Shown here one piece after another: positions 17,909-46,704 of a DNA stretch of 64,000 nucleotides. The stretch comes from an uncultured Gammaproteobacteria bacterium. GTDB taxonomy: Bacteria > Patescibacteriota > Microgenomatia > UBA1406. The stretch covers positions 10,849-74,848 of the forward strand of contig CAYPVH010000004.1 of assembly GCA_964414145.1 (NCBI GenBank), given 5' to 3'. Below the pieces are notes generated by a model. It did not search any database. It had not been told where the DNA came from and saw only the letters and a list, made by a program, of their open reading frames with translations. The translations under genes and the position numbers were made by a program. Numbering within the stretch: the first letter of the stretch is position 1; the number at the start of each line of letters is the position of its first letter.

Positions 17909-17989
17909 AGACTAAACATAGTAACATAAATGGCATACAGTTGTCCAGATAGAATTGTTAGACTGGTCACATTATTTAATAAAATTAAG

Positions 17990-18656
17990 AAAACCTAGTA
18001 GGAATCTAGGAATTTGGGATATAGGAATTTAGGAATATAAGAATAAATTCCAATAACCAAATACCAATTTCCAAACAAATCACAAAATACAAAATACAAA
18101 CAATAACAGGAATATATGAATATAAGAATTTAAGAATATAAATAAAAGCACGAAATCCAAATATCGAAATCCGAAATAATATCAAATAATCAATATCAAA
18201 TTATAAAACAGAACTCATAATTCATAATTCATAATCCGTAATACGTAATAGATAAATAGACTATGTGTCATGTTGAATCGTCGATTGAGGCGATGAAACA
18301 TCCCATGGGATTCTTCGTTACTCTCAGAATGACATGTGGAAAAAAAATAGAAAAATTGCTCTATTGTTTCATTGCTTCATTGTTCCCGCCTCTAACGGCG
18401 GGTGAATAGAGTGTCATCTTGAGCGAATGCAAAAGTTCCCATAGGATTCTTCACTTGCGTTCAGGATGACGGATAAAATAACCAATGACCAATTACCAAT
18501 TGACCAGATAATTACCAATTTTCAATAATCAAGGTAACAAGTACGAATTGAATGCTTAAATTTTTGTTTTGTTTGTTGTTTGAAATTTGTTTGACCTCCG
18601 ATTCGGAGGGTTTGGAAATTGTTTTTTTGGATCTTGGGATTTTATTTACCATCTTA
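17990..18656. repeat. noncoding modular low-complexity repeat tract A (family 1)
   Basis: Contains modules shared with 20800-21440, 25310-25390, 37020-37331 and lepA 21671-21740. For example, a 43-nt identical block at 18166-18208 equals 21049-21091. Also holds two imperfect palindromic elements (18260-18350, 18411-18471). Confidence 0.85.
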
Positions 18657-20786: not shown

Positions 20787-20799
20787 CAATTTTTAAATT

Positions 20800-21440
20800 G
20801 CTAGAAAAAACAAATCACAAATACCAATTTCCAAACCTTCCGAATCGGAGTGCAAACAAATCACAAATACCAAAAAGCATACTTAAAAAAAATTGCTACA
20901 TTGCTAAATTGTTAAACTGCCAGAAGAAAATAACAAGATCCAAGTAACAATTTCCAAACAAGTTCCAACCAACAAAATACAAACAAAGATAAGAATATAC
21001 TTCATTATCAATAACCAATAACCAATTGACCAAGTAAATCCGAATATTGAAATCCGAAATAATATCAAATAATCAATATCAAATTATAAAAAAGTACTTA
21101 TAATTCATAATCCGTAATTCGTAATAGATAAATAGAAAAATTGTTCCATTGCTTCATTGTTCTAATTAAAGTACAAGAGTACTATAGTACAGAAGTACTT
21201 TAGTAATATCAGCTTTTTATTTATTAACTAAAAACTTTAAATTCTAAACTTTCAGTGATGGGATCCTTCTCCGCCAGATGGCGGATCAATTACCAATTGA
21301 CCAAATAATCTCGAATTATCAATGTCAAATATTAAGTTAACAATAACACTATAACACTTTTATACTACTACACTTTATTTATTCACTACTTTATCAATTT
21401 ACAAATTTACTAAGTTACCAGCTTACTAACTTACCAATTT
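20800..21440. repeat. noncoding modular low-complexity repeat tract B (family 1)
   Basis: Colinear with tract A: aaatccgaa.. module at 21036-21063, cataattc..cgtaatagataaatag at 21099-21135, and aaaaattg..cattgcttcattgttc at 21136-21163. Also carries the ccaattaccaattgaccaa module and the ccgaatcgg hairpin module (20837-20852). Confidence 0.85.
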
Positions 21441-21455
21441 AAGTTGGATTTATCG

Positions 21456-21461
21456 TATAAT
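21456..21461 (+). promoter_or_regulatory. TATAAT -10 box 6 nt upstream of the lepA ATG (candidate leaderless transcript)
   Basis: cgTATAATacctagATG. Confidence 0.35.
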
Positions 21462-21467
21462 ACCTAG

Positions 21468-25261: not shown

Positions 25262-25912
25262 GTTAAGAGTTAAGAGTTAAGAGTTAGGTGATAATTAAAA
25301 GAGAGATATATTCGAAATCCGAAATAATATAAGAGTGCCAAAACCCAAAAAACAATTTCCAAACAAATCACAAACTACAAAAAACAAACAAAGATAAGAA
25401 TTTTGGAATATAGGATAATTTAAAATTAAAAATCAAAAATTAAAAATTTGAAGTAAAAAGTAACAACTAAGAATTTAAGAATATAAGACAAGAGTTAGGA
25501 GAAAAGAGTTAAGATAAGGTGAAAATAAACAGAAATCAATTTTCTACTTTCTTTTTTCTATTACTAATCTCCAATTTCTAGAAACTAATTTCTATTTATT
25601 AACTATAACACCATAATACTTTAATATCTTCACACTTTACATACTGGATTGACTAATGTATTTTGTCTAATATATCTTGTCTATTGAATAATGTATATTG
25701 TCTATTGAATAGTGTATATTGTCTATTGAATAGTGAATATTGTATATTGATTATTGTCTCTTGTATTCTGGATATTGACTAATGGATTTTGTCTACTGGA
25801 TACTGGATAATTCATACTGACTAATGTATATTGTCTAATGTATATTGTCTAATGTATATTGTCTAATGTATATTGTCTAATGTCTACTGTATATTGTATA
25901 TTGACTAATGAA
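25259..25912. repeat. noncoding repeat tract C (7-mer, 21-mer and 14-mer tandem arrays plus family-1 fragments)
   Basis: gttaaga x3-4 at 25259-25288. The 21-mer tgtctattgaata(a/g)tg(t/a)atat x3 spans 25678-25740. The 14-mer ctaatgtatattgt has 4 perfect copies plus 1 degenerate copy at 25821-25890. Family-1 fragments lie at 25310-25390. Confidence 0.9.
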
Positions 25913-25914
25913 TT

Positions 25915-26811
25915 CTACATTATCGAATAGCTGATTGTGTGGGTGGCTTTATCTGACATTTGCCTGTTATAGGCGTTAACAATGTTGCTCATTAAATAAG
26001 AAATCATAATTGGACCAGTACCGTTTATAACCGGTGTATAAAAAGCCGATTTTTCGGCAATTTCAGCCTCAACATAATCACCCATGGTTTTGCCCTCTTC
26101 TTTATGATAACCAAAATTAATAAGAGTTACCCCTTCTTTTATGTTTTGTGAAGTAATAATATTTTGACCGGTTGAAGTAATTAATATGTCGGCTTGTTTA
26201 TAAAAAACATCTGTGTCTGGGGTTTTTTTGTGCGTAATCACTAAGGCCATTTTGTGATCGACTAAAGTGTTTGCAATAGGTACGCCTGTTGTTTTTCCCC
26301 TGCCAGCCAAAACCACAAATTTTCTTTTGAATGATTTTTTAAAGAAATCTCTGTCTTTAGGAGTAACTTCCCAAGACGAACCATTTGTTGTGATGTATTT
26401 AAGTATGGAAAGAGTAGTTAAGCCAACCGGTGATTTGTAAGGAGTTTTGTATTTTTGCGCTTCCACTTCTTTGTTGAGTGGTATAAAGTTGTCTAGTGTT
26501 GGCGAAGACAGTTCTGGGGGGAGCGGCCGTTGTACAACAACGGCATGGTACTTTCTGCTATTTGCTATTTCTCTAAGATTGGTTGCAAAAACCTGAAAAA
26601 GTGGAGTTTGCGGGTAGTGAATTACTTCGAGGTCAATTCCTATTTCTTTGGCTAGTTCTTTCTTTTTCTGAATAAAAACATGGGTTAATTCATCATTACC
26701 GACGTAGAAAATAGCCGCTTTTGGTGGCGTTTCGTCTACATAATTTTCTTCTAGTCTTTTTTTAACTTTAGCTTGTATTTCTCTGGCTATTTCAAGACAA
26801 TTAATTTTCAT
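25915..26811 (-). CDS. folD: bifunctional methylene-THF dehydrogenase/methenyl-THF cyclohydrolase
   Basis: VVVQRPLP, AGRGKTTGVPIANTL, and TPVINGTGPIM. I place the start at the ATG at 26811 (MKINCLEIA), 4 nt after the gyrA stop, rather than at the listed 26838. Confidence 0.75.
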   Translation of the reverse strand: MKINCLEIAREIQAKVKKRLEENYVDETPPKAAIFYVGNDELTHVFIQKKKELAKEIGIDLEVIHYPQTPLFQVFATNLREIANSRKYHAVVVQRPLPPELSSPTLDNFIPLNKEVEAQKYKTPYKSPVGLTTLSILKYITTNGSSWEVTPKDRDFFKKSFKRKFVVLAGRGKTTGVPIANTLVDHKMALVITHKKTPDTDVFYKQADILITSTGQNIITSQNIKEGVTLINFGYHKEEGKTMGDYVEAEIAEKSAFYTPVINGTGPIMISYLMSNIVNAYNRQMSDKATHTISYSIM

Positions 26812-32900: not shown

Positions 32901-33017
32901 GTATGTATTCTATTAGTAAAATACAGAATGTTGAATTAATTGAATATATTAATATAGGCTTTTTATATTTATGGAATAAAGATTGATCGGTTGATAAAAT
33001 AGTATAATAACTAGATT

Positions 33018-33092
33018 GCCGAGGTAGCTCAGGGGTAGAGCAACTGTTTTGTAAACAGTAGGTCCGGGGTTCAAATCCCCGCCTCGGCTCCA
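33018..33092 (+). tRNA. tRNA-Thr (anticodon UGU), CCA encoded
   Basis: Cloverleaf read by hand: GCCGAGG/CCTCGGC acceptor, GCTC/GAGC D stem, ACTGT-TTTGTAA-ACAGT anticodon arm, and CGGGG-TTCAAAT-CCCCG T arm. Confidence 0.9.
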
Positions 33093-33099
33093 AGGTAAA

Positions 33100-33450
33100 T
33101 TGTTAAAATCAATATTTATTAGACAGTATCCAATAGACACTAGACAGTATCCAATAGACACTAGACATTATTCAAAATACATTATTCATTAAGCTATATA
33201 TAATATTAATAGGACAACATTCTTCACAATAGAAACAAAACAGAATCTAGATCAAAAAAGTATTTTGAATATTAATTATTAACATTTACTATTTTGTTTT
33301 TGTGACTTTTCTGCTTTACTTTACTATGTATTTAAGCCATTGGATATTGGATAATGAATGATAGATAATAATTGCTACTGTATCTTGTCCACTGAATTCT
33401 GTCTTTTTTAATACTGGATATTGTATAATGAATAATAGCTATTGATTATT
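33100..33450. repeat. noncoding repeat tract D (family 2, inverted relative to tract C)
   Basis: The 21-mer tagacagtatccaatagacac x2 (33120-33161) is the reverse complement of the tgtctattg(a/g)a.. units of tract C. Also ctggatattg/ggataatgaat words at 33340-33440. Confidence 0.8.
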
Positions 33451-33452
33451 AA

Positions 33453-34670: not shown

Positions 34671-36080
34671 TTATTTTTTATTAATTTCGATGCTATAGGC
34701 AGAATTAGGAGGCATTAGTAAAGTTTTTTGGATTACGCCCCTTGGCGCTTGAACTTCTTCGGTTACAACTTGCCCATTCAAACTGGTTGTTGTTACTGTA
34801 TAGTTACCCGGAACTAGGTTTGTAATTGCAAACGGTACGGATTCTGTATTTTTATTTTCAAGGTCGTAATTTACCAAAACTACCGCGTATTTGTTTTTGG
34901 TAAAAGAAGCAATTCCTTTTACAAAAGAACCTTCACCCTGTACGTAAAGCTGGTGGCGATATAGCACGTTTAAAAGTTTGAGAGCATTATACCTAGGCTT
35001 AGCTTCGCCACTATTGGTAAATATACCCCAGCGCGGTTCTGGACCGTCTTTAATATCGAAGGCAAAGGCCATTTCTACTTTTTCTTCAATTAAGTACCTA
35101 ATAGTTGCAAGAGTGTGGGCGGCACCAACATTGGTTTCGCTAATTGGATTTGGATTAGAATCAAAGCCCCATTCCGAAATAATTAAAGGTAAATTTTTGT
35201 ATTTTTGGTAAGGTGATCGGCTTAACCAACTATGAACACTATTTACATCGTTTTTATAGTCGTCTGTTCTTTGTGAGTAATGATGCCATGATATAAAATC
35301 TATTCTGAGATTGTTAGCTTCAATATAATCCAGCAAGCGAAGAAACCAATTTTGATAGGCTTTGGTAGTTACCGGCCCACCAAGATAGAAATGATAAACA
35401 TTAGCTGCTTCTTGTGCGCCTTTTGAAGAATAGTAATACATAGCTTTATAATCTTTTTCACCGCCATATAAACTCCATTTACCAAAACTTTCAAGATCCG
35501 GTTCGTTCCAAACTTCGTAGTAGATATTGTTCATCCACTCGCCATATACACCGCCGCAAAGCCTGGTATTTTTTCCGCTATAATGTTCGACTGTGCTTTT
35601 AACCAGTTGCTGCCATTCTTGCCAGTCTTTTGGTTGTGAAATTAAAGAGCCGTCTAGTGATATTTCGGGTGGCATATAACCGAGTGAAAAGAAAGGCTTG
35701 GCACCAATGTGGTAAATATCGCAAACAGTTTTATCTAGTTGTGTCCAGTCAAATTCTAGGTGGCCGGCATTGTTTCTTTTGACTACGTTGTAGAAGTCGT
35801 AAATATGATCTAACCTAATGTAGCGAGGTTGGAGTGCAGAAGTTTGGTAAACTACATTCTCAAGCATTCTAACCCCCTGCTCTTCCCCACCCTGGGCCAG
35901 AGCTTTCCAGTTATGACTAAGTGGGCCAGTATATTTTTTTACGTCTATTAAGATGTTTGCTTTTCGGTATGTGGCGCGAGATAAAAATTTAAAACTGGTA
36001 TTTTTACCGATGTATAGAATAAGTACTAAGGTAATTGCAAGGAATATAAATATAAGAGTATTTTTAATTCTTATAAACAT
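34671..36080 (-). CDS. membrane-anchored TIM-barrel glycoside hydrolase (GH39/GH5-like)
   Basis: N-terminal TM helix, YYEVWNEPD (acid/base Glu context), and ISEWGFD (nucleophile Glu context). Confidence 0.5.
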   Translation of the reverse strand: MFIRIKNTLIFIFLAITLVLILYIGKNTSFKFLSRATYRKANILIDVKKYTGPLSHNWKALAQGGEEQGVRMLENVVYQTSALQPRYIRLDHIYDFYNVVKRNNAGHLEFDWTQLDKTVCDIYHIGAKPFFSLGYMPPEISLDGSLISQPKDWQEWQQLVKSTVEHYSGKNTRLCGGVYGEWMNNIYYEVWNEPDLESFGKWSLYGGEKDYKAMYYYSSKGAQEAANVYHFYLGGPVTTKAYQNWFLRLLDYIEANNLRIDFISWHHYSQRTDDYKNDVNSVHSWLSRSPYQKYKNLPLIISEWGFDSNPNPISETNVGAAHTLATIRYLIEEKVEMAFAFDIKDGPEPRWGIFTNSGEAKPRYNALKLLNVLYRHQLYVQGEGSFVKGIASFTKNKYAVVLVNYDLENKNTESVPFAITNLVPGNYTVTTTSLNGQVVTEEVQAPRGVIQKTLLMPPNSAYSIEINKK

Positions 36081-36143
36081 ATTAAATCATTATATCTGAA
36101 TTTTTGTTTTTGATTTGTTTATATTATAATAAGGTACTGTTTC

Positions 36144-36162
36144 TAAATTAATTGCCAGAGTG
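36144..36162 (+). repeat. duplicated 5' flank plus first 9 nt of tRNA-Leu
   Basis: taaattaattgccagagtg at 36144-36162 versus ttaaataattgccagagtg at 36298-36316. Confidence 0.8.
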
Positions 36163-36307
36163 TTCGAGGATCAAGAACTGTATACTTGCAGTTCGCAGTC
36201 CTGTACTGTGCTTGTCACTAGTACAGGATGAGTAGCAGAAATGGATAAGTTTTTTACGGGAGCATACGCTGAGACTGATATAATTGAAAGCAGTGCTTTA
36301 AATAATT

Positions 36308-36395
36308 GCCAGAGTGGCGGAATTGGCATACGCGCAGGACTTAAAATCCTGTGGCCCTTTGGGTCGTATGGGTTCGAGTCCCATCTCTGGCACCA
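36308..36395 (+). tRNA. tRNA-Leu (anticodon UAA), class II, CCA encoded
   Basis: GCCAGAG/CTCTGGC acceptor, CAGGA-CTTAAAA-TCCTG anticodon arm, a long variable arm, and ATGGG-TTCGAGT-CCCAT T arm. Confidence 0.9.
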
Positions 36396-36611
36396 GCCTT
36401 CGCTTAAGCTTCGGCCGGCAAGGCACGTTTATAGGTGGGATTAATTGAGTCTCGCCCCTCATAGTCCGTAGGACGACGTGGGGTCCCATCTCTGGCACCA
36501 GCCTTCGCTTAAGCTTCGGCCGGCAAGGCACGTTTATAGGTGGGATTAATTGAGTCTCGCCCCTCAAAGTCCACCGGTTGGCGGATGACGTGGGGTCCCA
36601 TCTCTGGCACA
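36396..36611 (+). repeat. two tandem ~105/110-nt units, each ending in a copy of the tRNA-Leu 3' end
   Basis: Unit 1 is 36396-36500 and unit 2 is 36501-36610. Their first 66 nt are identical. gtcccatctctggcacca occurs at 36378-36395 and 36483-36500, and its first 16 nt recur at 36595-36610. Confidence 0.9.
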
Positions 36612-36669
36612 TTATAAAGAGTTTGCAAGTATTCTTGCAATTACTCTTTGTTATGTCCGTTTTTTCATT

Positions 36670-36740
36670 CGGGATGTAGCTCAGATGGCTAGGCGGTCCG
36701 ACGTTATGTCGGACAGGTCGCTTTGCTTTCCCTTTTTTTC
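36670..36740 (+). pseudogene. tRNA-Pro-like 5' fragment / degenerate tRNA paralogue
   Basis: 26 nt identical to the tRNA-Pro 5' region including 3 nt of flank (36667-36692 = 36796-36821). A 7-bp hairpin follows (GTCCGAC-gttat-GTCGGAC), then AGGTCGC as in the variable/T-stem junction. There is no T arm, and a T-run lies at 36733-36739. Confidence 0.6.
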
Positions 36741-36798
36741 GATTGCTTGTTTATATTGTTCCTATGGAGTAATTAGTTTATAATTGGAATTACATATT

Positions 36799-36875
36799 CG
36801 GGATGTAGCTCAGATGGCTAGAGCGCACGCTTTGGGAGCGTGAGGTCGCGAGTTCAAGTCTCGCCATCCCGACCA
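36799..36875 (+). tRNA. tRNA-Pro (anticodon UGG), CCA encoded
   Basis: CGGGATG/CATCCCG acceptor, CACGC-TTTGGGA-GCGTG anticodon arm, and GCGAG-TTCAAGT-CTCGC T arm. Confidence 0.9.
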
Positions 36876-36992
36876 GTTCCAATCGCACAGTTTTCTAGAT
36901 AGATAGGATCCGTGCGAGTTCCCCGATACGCTTCGCTTTATCGGGACTAACTCAGAATAAACCTCACTTCGTATCGGTAACTCTGAGTTGAG

Positions 36993-37011
36993 CAAGTCTC
37001 GCCATCCCGAC
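36993..37011 (+). repeat. duplicated tRNA-Pro 3' end fragment
   Basis: caagtctcgccatcccgac at 36855-36873 (inside the tRNA) recurs at 36993-37011. Confidence 0.85.
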
Positions 37012-37019
37012 ACATAAAA

Positions 37020-37331
37020 AAATTCCAAATCTCAAATATCAATTTCCAAGCCCTCCGAATCGGAGGGCAAACAAATTACAAATACCAAAAAACAAATAAG
37101 AAGTAAATTTTTTCATGGCTAAGATACATGTCATGATGACAGGAGTGAATTATCAAGAATCAATTACCAATTGACCAATTAAGCAAATAAATCCGAAATC
37201 CGAATATCGAAACTCGAAACAATATCAAAGCACCAAAATCCAAAAAATTCACTTTGTCGGCCTGCTGGCGGACTTCGAGGGGCAGGTAAAATCAAAATAA
37301 ATTCCGAATAACAAACCTAGATACAAATACT
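37020..37331. repeat. noncoding modular repeat tract E (family 1), bracketed by a perfect 39-nt direct repeat
   Basis: Modules: caatttccaag-ccctccgaatcggaggg-caaacaaattacaaataccaaaaaa (37040-37091), caattaccaattgaccaa (37161-37178), and aaatccgaaatccgaatatcgaaa (37189-37212). The 39-nt repeat sits at 36912-36950 and 37332-37370. Confidence 0.85.
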
Positions 37332-37392
37332 GTGCGAGTTCCCCGATACGCTTCGCTTTATCGGGACTAATTCTGTCTTCTTGCTGAATTAA

Positions 37393-38391
37393 TTAAACCA
37401 AACTTTGTTGAGTTTCTTTATTTTCTGAGTTATACAAAATTCCCATATGTTTATACGCCTGCCTGGTTGCGACCCTGCCCTTGGGGGTACGCTTGATAAA
37501 CCCAAGTTGTAGCAGGTATGGTTCTATAAACTCTTCTACGGTTTGTTTGTCTTCCGACAAGGCCATAGAAAGCGTTTCTACCCCTGTTGGCCCGCCATCA
37601 AATTTATTAATTAATGTTTCCATGTATTGCCTGTCTTGTGAAAATAAACCCAAACTATCTATTTCCAGTATTTCAAATAATTTTTTAATTAATGAACTTT
37701 CTATAATTTTATGCTCGTCTACTTGATATAAGTCTCTGGCACGCTTTAGAATTCGGTTCGCAATTCTGGGGGTCTTGCGTGACCGCCTGGCTATTTCCAT
37801 TGCTGCCGATTCTTCGATATTCAAATTCATAATCGCGCTATTTCTGATTATGATTTGCTGAACCTCACCTTCGGTGTAATAATCTAGTCTTAAAACCAAT
37901 CCAAACCTGTCTCTCATGGGGGAAGACAGTAAAGCGACTCTGGTTGTTGCCCCAATTACCGTTATTTTAGGTACAGGAAGGCGAACATTTCTAGCTGACG
38001 GGCCTTTTCCCAAAACAATATCTAGATTATAGTCTTCAAGTACAGGGTAGAGCGCTTCTTCTACCGCTTTTGGTAAACGATGAATTTCATCTATAAACAA
38101 TATGTCTCCATTTTTTAGATTGGTTAAAATTGCAGCTAAGTCGCCGGCCCTTTCAATAGCCGGACCGGAACTGATTTTTATATCTCCTTCAAGTTCAGTT
38201 GCCAAAATATGAGCAAGCGTGGTTTTACCTATACCCGGTGGTCCGTAAAAAAGTAAGTGCTCTGCCGACTCTTTTCTTTTCTTGGCTGCGTCTATAAACA
38301 AGGATAGACTTTTCTTTACCTTTCCTTGACCAATATAATCTTTAAGAGTTTTTGGCCGAAGTTGAGTATCTATGCTTTTAGTTGGTTTCAT
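37393..38391 (-). CDS. ruvB: Holliday junction branch migration helicase RuvB
   Basis: GPPGIGKTTLA, FIDEIHRL, and GATTR. The C-terminal winged helix carries LLQLGFIKRTPKGR. Confidence 0.97.
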   Translation of the reverse strand: MKPTKSIDTQLRPKTLKDYIGQGKVKKSLSLFIDAAKKRKESAEHLLFYGPPGIGKTTLAHILATELEGDIKISSGPAIERAGDLAAILTNLKNGDILFIDEIHRLPKAVEEALYPVLEDYNLDIVLGKGPSARNVRLPVPKITVIGATTRVALLSSPMRDRFGLVLRLDYYTEGEVQQIIIRNSAIMNLNIEESAAMEIARRSRKTPRIANRILKRARDLYQVDEHKIIESSLIKKLFEILEIDSLGLFSQDRQYMETLINKFDGGPTGVETLSMALSEDKQTVEEFIEPYLLQLGFIKRTPKGRVATRQAYKHMGILYNSENKETQQSLV

Positions 38392-46429: not shown

Positions 46430-46633
46430 AATCAGAAATATACTATCTTACCGTTTAGATTTAATAAAAATAGTTGAAGATATTGGTAAGAAACCATTAA
46501 CAATATTATGAAGAACATTTAAAAATATTTAACATTACATAATATCTGATATCCTGTCTTCAAAAATTTAGTCATCAATGAAAACTTGTACCTCACCTTG
46601 TACTATATGACGATCTTTATACGATGTTGAATG

Positions 46634-46704
46634 CTGGGAGACAGGGACTCGAACCCCGATTAACGGCTCCAAAGGCCGCTGTGCTACCATTGCACCATCT
46701 CCCA
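46634..46704 (-). tRNA. tRNA-Gln (anticodon UUG), CCA not encoded
   Basis: Minus-strand cloverleaf: TGGGAGA/TCTCCCA acceptor, GCGGC-CTTTGGA-GCCGT anticodon arm, and CGGGG-TTCGAGT-CCCTG T arm. Confidence 0.85.

Follow-up and report, generated by a model that had tools for sequence, protein, structure and literature searches.

Displaced tRNA gene ends beside ruvB in a Patescibacteria genome: possible relics of nuclease cassettes that nest in tRNA genes

How do two adjacent and intact tRNA genes come to be surrounded by copies of their own ends, each set apart from its gene by roughly a hundred nucleotides of other DNA? The question is raised by a stretch of 64,000 nt (contig CAYPVH010000004.1, positions 10,849 to 74,848; "the window" below means this whole stretch) of low G+C content (~32%) from a bacterium of the Patescibacteria (Candidate Phyla Radiation, CPR; Microgenomates-like). 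In it, a non-coding gap of 1312 nt between a GH39-like gene and ruvB contains exactly two tRNA genes, tRNA-Leu(UAA) and tRNA-Pro(UGG), both intact and both encoding CCA (ARAGORN and Rfam). An earlier note on this DNA had described five duplications of the ends of these genes, and a repeat search recovered all of them where that note had placed them. The explanation that we favor, with moderate confidence, is that the window carries relics without open reading frames (ORFs), or non-autonomous derivatives, of cassettes bearing a homing-type nuclease that targets tRNA genes, together with one tandem amplification. The locus points to an apparently undescribed family of tRNA-nesting GIY-YIG cassettes in Patescibacteria, and is itself probably a dense, inert footprint.

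Repeated tRNA ends and the inserts between them

The gap and its two flanking genes are laid out as follows.

34671-36080, minus strand: GH39-like gene
36125-36130, plus strand: TATAAT box, 23 nt upstream of the displaced tRNA-Leu 5' copy, read as the ancestral operon promoter
36146-36162, plus strand: displaced tRNA-Leu 5' copy, 8 nt of flank plus positions 1-9 (36154-36162), 16 of 17 nt identical to 36300-36316
36163-36299, plus strand: insert Y1, with hairpins at 36175-36194 and 36199-36228
36276-36284, plus strand: extended -10 box of Y1, TGATATAAT, 23 nt before the intact tRNA-Leu
36308-36395, plus strand: intact tRNA-Leu(UAA) with encoded CCA (ARAGORN; Rfam, 60.8 bits)
36396-36482, plus strand: insert E1, 56% G+C, with a hairpin at 36396-36424
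36483-36500, plus strand: copy 2 of the tRNA-Leu 3' end, 18 nt from T loop to CCA (repeat search)
36501-36594, plus strand: insert E2, a tandem copy of E1, first 66 nt identical
36595-36610, plus strand: copy 3 of the tRNA-Leu 3' end, 16 nt, without CCA, followed by CATTATAAAG; read as the displaced native 3' end
36611-36666, plus strand: AT-rich spacer with a long hairpin (36616-36649) and a T run, terminator-like
36667-36692, plus strand: displaced tRNA-Pro 5' copy, ATT plus positions 1-23, 26 of 26 nt identical to 36796-36821
36693-36795, plus strand: insert X1, in which a T run is followed by an AT-rich spacer (60 nt)
36799-36875, plus strand: intact tRNA-Pro(UGG) with encoded CCA (ARAGORN; Rfam, 68.7 bits)
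36876-36992, plus strand: insert X2, with three hairpins, including a 42-nt element at 36912-36953
36993-37011, plus strand: copy of the tRNA-Pro 3' end, 19 nt from T-loop C56, identical to 36855-36873, without CCA, followed by ACATAAAAA; read as the displaced native 3' end
37332-37373, plus strand: second copy of the 42-nt "plugged T-arm" element, identical to 36912-36953 and 20 nt from the ruvB stop
37393-38391, minus strand: ruvB

The five end duplications are real and far exceed what chance would give: when the region was simulated 500 times with a first-order Markov model, exact direct repeats reached 9.9 nt on average and 14 at most, and only 6 of the 500 sequences had any repeated 14-mer at all, as against 128 repeated 14-mers in the real region. 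All five fragments are terminal (not internal) pieces of 16-26 nt in direct orientation, with 5' copies upstream and 3' copies downstream of each intact tRNA at repeat spacings of 105-154 nt, and the inserts between copies and genes (87-137 nt) bear hairpins and contain no ORF. The repeat at the Leu 5' end is identical at 17 of 19 nt over a 19-nt span (14 nt of it exact) with a spacing of 154 nt, and the Pro 5' copy sits 129 nt upstream of its counterpart. On the other side of the genes, the 3' copies lie at +105 and +217 (Leu) and at +138 (Pro). The two Leu copies close tandem units (105 and 110 nt) that are identical over their first 66 nt, the single mismatch falling at 36462, and the distal one corresponds to the first 16 of the 18 nt that end tRNA-Leu. 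The 5' blocks stop at tRNA positions 9 (Leu) and 23 (Pro), and the 3' blocks begin at T-loop G59 (Leu) and at C56 (Pro). Short same-strain contigs from two other assemblies are identical wherever they overlap, and one of them, a contig of the Joint Genome Institute (JGI; L003), covers the Leu 5' copy, the whole of insert Y1 and the start of tRNA-Leu; a spurious 104-aa antisense ORF, looked up as a means of finding the tandem units in other assemblies, was not on record.

The edges of the repeats are sharp, and Smith-Waterman comparisons against shuffles found no residual similarity beside the repeats or between the inserts. Exact repeats with such edges are therefore not the outcome of gradual decay, and the decay of tandem tRNA duplicates was rejected as their origin, no similarity being left beside repeats that are perfect. 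No end copies were found flanking the tRNA-Thr and tRNA-Gln genes of the window (33018-33092 and 46633-46704). CCA encoding is mixed in this genome, tRNA-Thr having it and tRNA-Gln lacking it.

Each break has a perfect or near-perfect, GC-rich hairpin at or near it: 3 nt past the break on the Pro 5' side, abutting it on the Leu 3' side, and, for the first hairpin on the Leu 5' side, 13 nt past it. X1 opens with a perfect 7-bp/5-nt hairpin (GTCCGAC-GTTAT-GTCGGAC, 36696-36714) followed by AGGTCGC (36715-36721) as in the gene, both of which the earlier note had seen; its further description of the Pro copy as continuing into a degenerate tRNA-like molecule was not borne out, since neither ARAGORN nor Rfam (E up to 10) detected any fragment as a tRNA. 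In E1, GGTGGGA (36434-36440) can pair with TCCCATC, and a CCCC...GGGG / GTCC-GTA-GGAC hairpin abuts the next Leu 3' copy; E2 has ACCGGTTGGC for GTA at the tip of this hairpin and GGAT for GGAC. The hairpin of X2 at 36949-36989 stops 3 nt before the Pro 3' copy, and the 42-nt element, a repeat that was absent from the earlier note's list, consists of GCGAGTTC (the tRNA-Pro T stem plus TTC) followed by a perfect hairpin, CCCGATA-N10-TATCGGG. Compared with shuffled sequence, four of the five segments (Y1, X1 and both E units with their 3' copies) fold at z = -0.7 to -1.3, and X2 with the Pro 3' copy (36876-37012, 137 nt) at z = -2.45. In a Roizmanbacteria chromosome (L004, 9355-9712), a 120-nt spacer between tRNA-Thr and tRNA-Arg is full of GC hairpins (e.g., GTCCCTAACGAAGCCGATAGGTGAAGTGGGAC) that resemble those of the window inserts in style.

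The inserts are compositionally foreign: E1 and E2 have a tRNA-like G+C content of 56-57% against an intergenic mean of 29%, and 0.45% of 90-nt windows reach 55%. They are modestly enriched in 6- and 7-mers of the cognate tRNA (P about 0.02; GCGAGTTC is an example), and looser, longer alignments gave no more than hints short of significance, p about 0.1 for E1 against tRNA-Pro and p about 0.09-0.18 for X2 against tRNA-Pro; possible degenerate tRNA-Leu pieces in Y1, including GCATACGC at 36262-36269, are not significant alone (p about 0.1-0.15). Searches for an outside source were empty. By blastn, no other insert copies exist within the window except E1/E2 and the 42-nt element, the inserts matched nothing in about 1 Mb of fetched loci, and the 876-nt block matched phage and plasmid collections only at the two tRNA genes. 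Exact patterns of the Leu and Pro 3' ends and of the E, X2 and Y1 cores had 0 matches in the viral collection, and a metagenome scan with a 23-mer of the Leu 3' end found 10 unrelated loci, none of them scarred. Besides the tRNAs, Rfam (at gathering thresholds and with E up to 10) returned only a sub-threshold match to YrlA, which we rejected as caused by tRNA-like arms (23 bits vs 69).

The compact locus of relatives and the direction of displacement

In a genome collection the best relative by RuvB is a Candidatus Roizmanbacteria chromosome (63% identity), and the nearest RuvB homologues in a large protein collection are 73-77% identical; through these and their contigs we reached seven relatives (L094-L100). 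In all seven, orthologues of the tRNA-Leu(taa) and tRNA-Pro(tgg) genes of the window lie beside ruvB. The distance between the two genes is 3-12 nt in L094, L095, L097, L098 and L100, and the spacer measures 172 nt in L099 and 770 nt, with an ORF, in L096; where counted in the compact relatives, one TATAAT box lies 22-24 nt upstream of tRNA-Leu. No tRNA-end repeats occur at the ruvB/tRNA-Pro/tRNA-Leu locus of any of the seven, and the expansion is therefore specific to the lineage of the window. The comparison with relatives that the earlier note had proposed thus produced an unscarred state, and relatives with intermediate tandem tRNA duplicates, the plainer history that it had set against its own reading, were not found.

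Five repeat units (154 + 105 + 112 + 129 + 138 nt) account for 638 of the 858 nt between the outermost fragments, and taking them out leaves Leu, a 60-nt spacer and Pro, that is, a locus like those of the relatives. On this comparison of sequences, the 638 nt of the 858-nt block are a lineage-specific insertion, and 36611-36666 is probably the native Leu-Pro spacer. The tRNA-Leu(UAA) and tRNA-Pro(UGG) genes themselves would be native and vertically inherited, and appear to have once formed a compact, co-transcribed pair beside ruvB.

Which copies are the old ends and which the new? The distal 3' copies lack CCA and run on into AT-rich DNA (GGCA-C-ATTATAAAG and CCGA-CAC-ATAAAAA), and they match the native ends of relatives without encoded CCA, which read GGCA-C-T/A-rich for Leu and CCGA-CAT/CAC for Pro; the copies continuous with the intact genes have CCA and then G+C-rich insert DNA. 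At the other end, only three plus-strand TATAAT boxes are present: 23 nt before the Leu 5' copy, 23 nt before the intact Leu and 14 nt before the intact Pro (36779-36784, in X1). The boxes of both intact genes lie within inserts. The displaced Pro copy has no TATAAT ahead of it, which fits a Leu-Pro pair that was originally co-transcribed. Moreover, the Leu 5' copy lies 73 nt from the GH39 start, and relatives L097 and L100 have tRNA-Leu 26-29 nt from that start, so that it is the displaced copy, not the intact gene, that is nearer to where relatives have tRNA-Leu. The native context of the distal copies, together with the promoters and CCA in the inserts, therefore suggests that the inserts supplied replacement ends and that the native ends moved outward. 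In L094 and L098, tRNA-Pro abuts the ruvB stop, where the second 42-nt element (37332-37373) sits in the window; this element is possibly older tRNA-Pro debris at the original position of that gene.

Nested tRNA copies and GIY-YIG genes in other Patescibacteria

A first scan of 71 tRNAs for end copies within 700 nt, repeated on a larger set, found similar arrangements elsewhere. At loci picked by RuvB alone, 4 of 31 Patescibacteria tRNAs have collinear partial copies, as against 1 of 36 tRNAs with any copy close by at non-CPR loci. The four are:

L023, tRNA-Gly: 12 nt of tRNA, a 48-nt plug, 12 nt of tRNA; no ORF
L027, tRNA-Gly: 16 nt of tRNA, a plug of about 50 nt, 14 nt of tRNA; no ORF
L029, tRNA-Leu: partial copy to the anticodon loop, then directly a 79-aa GIY-YIG ORF
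L095, tRNA-Gln (1660-2213): plugged partial copy, then directly a 101-aa GIY-YIG ORF

Their common design is a 5' partial copy (12-17 nt or more, often with some flank; 12-21 nt for the upstream copies of the other loci with this design), a G+C-rich hairpin plug in the D-arm region, a short collinear resumption of the tRNA, an AT-rich spacer and the intact gene. L027 also has an 11-nt acceptor 3' piece (positions 63-73) downstream at +123, and L095 has two to three tandem 81-nt units without an ORF before its tRNA-Gln. An 11-nt inverted repeat (CTGCTCTCAGA / TCTGAGAGCAG) on either side of the tRNA-Gly gene of L023 (3706-3809) would lengthen the acceptor stem of the precursor.

At least four lineages (L029, L095, the L101 group and the L111 group) have a small stand-alone GIY-YIG gene in the insert that separates the partial copy from the intact tRNA. 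The L095 ORF has 96 homologues at E <=1e-8, the named ones almost all from Patescibacteria, and the two that we placed in context (the L101 and L111 groups) lie 16-26 nt upstream of an intact tRNA-Gln. There, at L101 1440-1993 (also L102-L110) and L111 1447-1960, the GIY-YIG ORF and the intact tRNA-Gln are nested together in a tRNA-Gln pseudogene whose D, anticodon and T loops hold GC hairpin plugs; in L101 the 3' piece of this pseudogene (positions 55-72, starting in the T loop) lies 148 nt downstream of the same positions of the gene. L095, L101 and L111 share a D-loop plug of 32 nt that is about 90% conserved among them, although their nucleases are only about 51-53% identical. Six further homologues (P0124, P0138, P0147, P0158, P0160 and P0216) have mis-called N- or C-terminal extensions that translate tRNA or plug DNA (e.g., ..RLTVVASSATRRRGGDKI-M.., ..LVLGSSPRR.. 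and ..ADLAQLVEQ...); gene calls running into such DNA indicate that the subfamily is generally wedged between tRNA sequences. The cassette proteins are UPF0213-type stand-alone GIY-YIG domains of 80-100 aa (PDB 1ywl, 1zg2) that also match group I intron endonucleases, though below the threshold. A full-text search of the literature found nothing that links GIY-YIG, Patescibacteria and tRNA in the sense of such nested cassettes.

One site was found both occupied and empty. In L097 (750-864), a close relative of L095, EF-Ts is followed by a 37-nt promoter region and tRNA-Gln; the tRNA-Gln genes of the two are 100% identical, and the pair bears the signature of a recent insertion.

The window has the elements of this design, namely upstream partial 5' copies, GC-rich hairpins at the breaks and downstream 3' copies, the last at +105 to +217 as against +148 in L101 and +123 in L027. 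Its Pro 5' unit, in which 23 nt of tRNA are followed by a perfect hairpin of 19 nt, by 7 collinear nt with a T run and then by an AT spacer with a promoter, appears to follow the design of L023 and L027, and its Leu 5' unit would be similar to it, with a longer insert of two hairpins. As in L101, and about as far from the gene, each 3' copy follows a hairpin directly and begins within the T loop, and the E tandem may be seen as a parallel to the tandem units of L095. Of the three origins that the earlier note had offered, a miniature element templated on tRNA ends comes closest to this wider comparison, in which the design recurs in Patescibacteria with or without a GIY-YIG gene.

Origin of the locus

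Because the nested design recurs in Patescibacteria, with a GIY-YIG gene in the upstream insert in several lineages, we read the window as holding a set of cassette relics. The mechanism that we envisage is one in which short cassettes were inserted into both ends of both tRNA genes. We infer that a nuclease-borne cassette would target a tRNA gene, cut it and be copied into the broken gene by repair. A 5' cassette would bring a new promoter, leader and 5' end, and a 3' cassette a 3' end with CCA; since the cassette would carry a replacement for the part it displaces, the tRNA would stay intact, and the native end would be pushed outward with its native flank still attached. The ORF may later have been lost, leaving units of 80-160 nt, and the 18-nt repeats that bound one 3' cassette may have let it double in tandem, through unequal recombination or slippage.

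A precedent for two of these steps is SegB of phage T4, a GIY-YIG nuclease that has the T-psi-C stem-loop motif of tRNA genes within its site and that homes the tRNA region (PMC2330249); the breaks that it makes lead, via short homologies, to tandem repeats of tRNA-containing segments (PMC13096335). In related Patescibacteria, as in T4 and T6, a GIY-YIG gene is wedged against tRNA genes, and the 3' copies of the window begin at the T-psi-C stem-loop. Homing cassettes have occupied and empty alleles, and here, too, the window locus is empty in seven relatives and L095 is occupied where L097 is empty. SegB, however, is a phage protein with a DNA-binding part, unlike the small UPF0213-type domains of Patescibacteria; the window, unlike the SegB locus, has no nuclease gene; and nested partial tRNA copies with hairpin plugs have not been described for SegB.

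A bolder version would join four propositions: that UPF0213-type GIY-YIG genes may encode the nuclease of tRNA-nesting homing cassettes, a class not described so far; that these cassettes carry a spare tRNA part and conserved hairpin plugs that disrupt the displaced copy, perhaps giving immunity to re-cutting; that they decay to ORF-less units of 80-160 nt able to amplify in tandem; and that the window holds a tRNA pair hit at both ends of both genes by cassettes of which only relics are left. We put this whole forward tentatively, and regard it as rather doubtful that all four hold together.

Several observations weigh against cassette relics as the explanation. A GIY-YIG gene or remnant was not detected in the 64-kb window by tblastn or by a profile hidden Markov model (HMM) in six frames; a lone HMM match, which falls within the CorA gene, was dismissed as spurious. 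In sequence, the window hairpins have nothing in common with the conserved TCGCC..GGCGA / CCCGCC..GGCGGG plugs of the tRNA-Gln cassettes, and the collinear resumption is weakly supported in the window (p = 0.027 for AGGTCGC at offset +1 on the Pro side, p about 0.13-0.15 for GCATACGC and its neighbours on the Leu side, p = 0.09-0.25 for the other alignments as a whole). The GIY-YIG proteins themselves are without a DNA-binding domain, and their homing activity is putative. Finally, the tandem units and the Pro side rest on one assembly, and there is no close sister genome to fix the timing and order of events.

The earlier note had also suggested serial integration and decay, and part of this stands: insertion into a compact Leu-Pro pair agrees with the relatives, and the classic version with integrases does not hold up against intervals of 87-137 nt and the lack of an integrase, quite apart from its need for two of the rare events that leave a 5' fragment. 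In that version, tyrosine integrases would have acted serially at the T loop on the 3' side and at the 5' end, followed by deletion to about 100 nt and the duplication of one scar; we consider it unlikely. As in the islands catalogued in Islander (PMC4383910), an intact tRNA is accompanied by a terminal piece displaced to the correct side and directly oriented, which is true of all five fragments here, and the inserted DNA restores the gene. Both 3' repeats run from the T loop to the 3' end, and the T loop is one of the known crossover sublocations (with the anticodon loop and the T/acceptor junction); the element-side copies with CCA or a promoter are like attP-borne tDNA pieces, and Islander has 125 cases of tandem arrays at a single tDNA. 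But islands span intervals of 2-200 kb, and attP alone takes about 250 bp. No integrase, transposase or reverse transcriptase was found in the 64-kb window (Pfam, 47 ORFs >=90 aa), in agreement with the earlier note as regards the integrase. Four specificities would be needed at two adjacent genes, both ends of both genes being hit, and two of the events would be of the rare 5'-fragment type (159 of 3919 islands), with breaks at positions 9 and 23 that are not among the known sublocations. The empty viral scans and the phage and plasmid searches that matched tRNA genes only speak against integrase scars as well, and such scars leave unexplained both the hairpins at the breaks and the recurrence of hairpin-interrupted partial copies in Patescibacteria. 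Less likely again is local rearrangement without any mobile element, whether by slippage, unequal crossing-over or template-switch repair with patchwork gap filling. It would be at home in this genome, where mosaics of short repeats make up the intergenic regions in general, with 42 nt of X2 copied 420 nt away, with 37012-37250 sharing blocks with the intergenic regions at 18-21 kb and 25 kb, with a plain tandem duplication in E1/E2 and with k-mers of the cognate tRNA in the inserts. Y1, E, X1 and most of X2, however, are without a source in the window, the G+C content of E is far from the intergenic mean, and nothing similar is seen at the locus in the seven relatives; a correctly spaced promoter in both 5' inserts and CCA in both 3' inserts are too orderly for random filler.

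That the fragments and inserts are transcribed along with the tRNAs as functional RNAs (leaders or trailers, processing decoys or regulators) and maintained by selection is compatible with the other readings and, taken by itself, improbable. The fragments are perfectly conserved beside unrelated sequence, E has the G+C content of a tRNA, the difference between E1 and E2 preserves the hairpin (G-C to G-U, with a swapped loop), and in the tRNA-Gln cassettes the plugs are far better conserved than the nuclease. Yet none of the fragments has a tRNA-like score or belongs to an Rfam family, Y1, X1 and the E units fold no better than shuffles, no homologues were found for covariation, and seven relatives manage without these sequences; the tRNA-like decoys of the earlier note thus find no support, X2 with the Pro 3' copy being the one segment that folds more stably. 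A very improbable reading is that strain variants or collapsed or expanded repeats were joined in a metagenome-assembled contig, as might be supposed from other same-strain assemblies that break near or within the region and from a 90-nt E repeat that could be miscounted. The independent JGI contig has both Y1 junctions exactly, the same architecture is present in many unrelated assemblies, and most of the bounding repeats (14-19 nt) are shorter than the usual assembly k-mers, so that the junctions must exist in reads. Priming of reverse transcription by tRNA gives hybrid cDNA, as in the Neurospora retroplasmids, and the CCA junctions and an 18-nt Leu copy that starts just after A58 would fit such an origin. 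We find it scarcely credible here, as it would leave the 5' copies without an explanation, the Pro copy begins at C56, no reverse transcriptase is present, and relative L094 has a natively encoded CCA, as does the tRNA-Thr of the window.

Other known systems are more distant. The tyrT distal repeats of Escherichia coli (the rtT / tpr region) are 3.14 copies of a 178-bp unit, each with the last about 19 nt of the tRNA including CCA, and the tandem units of the window likewise each carry the 3'-terminal about 18-19 nt of a tRNA with CCA; they differ in unit (105-112 nt, two copies), in the presence of 5' copies and in organism, and have no sequence relation. The GIY-YIG ORFs of L029 and L095 begin at the anticodon arm, which recalls insertions within tRNA genes of the same phylum. 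A group I intron was rejected, the window giving no signal and the inserts being too short; the six cassette loci likewise have no such signal (Rfam finds tRNAs only), and, unlike genes with group I introns, the interrupted copies are cut short and are accompanied by an intact gene of its own. Inspection of the insert ends found no terminal inverted repeats and no attC-like ends, and casposon or transposon target duplication (repeat lengths of 14-26 nt) and integron cassettes were rejected.

If cassette relics are the correct explanation, the tRNA genes of the reduced genomes of Patescibacteria would be recurrent targets of tiny nuclease-driven cassettes that leave nested scars, and the widespread UPF0213 GIY-YIG proteins would gain a testable function. 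It would also account for a class of tRNA gene fragments that confuse annotation, and occupied and empty sites could serve as markers of strain-level evolution in uncultured lineages. If only integrase scarring is involved, the locus would be an ordinary footprint, unusually dense.

The remaining ORFs of the window are recognizable housekeeping genes by translation and synteny, including gyrA, gyrB and a pyrophosphatase (all three by synteny), mgsA, GH39 and ruvABC. Its long intergenic regions (17909-18656, 20787-21467, 25262-25914, 32901-33452 and 37012-37392) are mosaics of AT-rich motifs with a period of 7-8 nt and short GC hairpins (e.g., CCCTCCGAATCGGAGGG at 37051 and CCCGCCTCTAACGGCGGG at 18385), and blocks recur between them at 81-93% identity. 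A tandem array with a 7-nt period occupies 25613-25955 and has a complement-like partner at 33109-33209. Two roughly 65-nt copies (~18267-18335 and ~18413-18473) have ends of the GTCATnTTGA ... TCAGnATGAC type, in a style like that of the 45-nt direct repeats that flank a GIY-YIG ORF in L025 (3327-3795).

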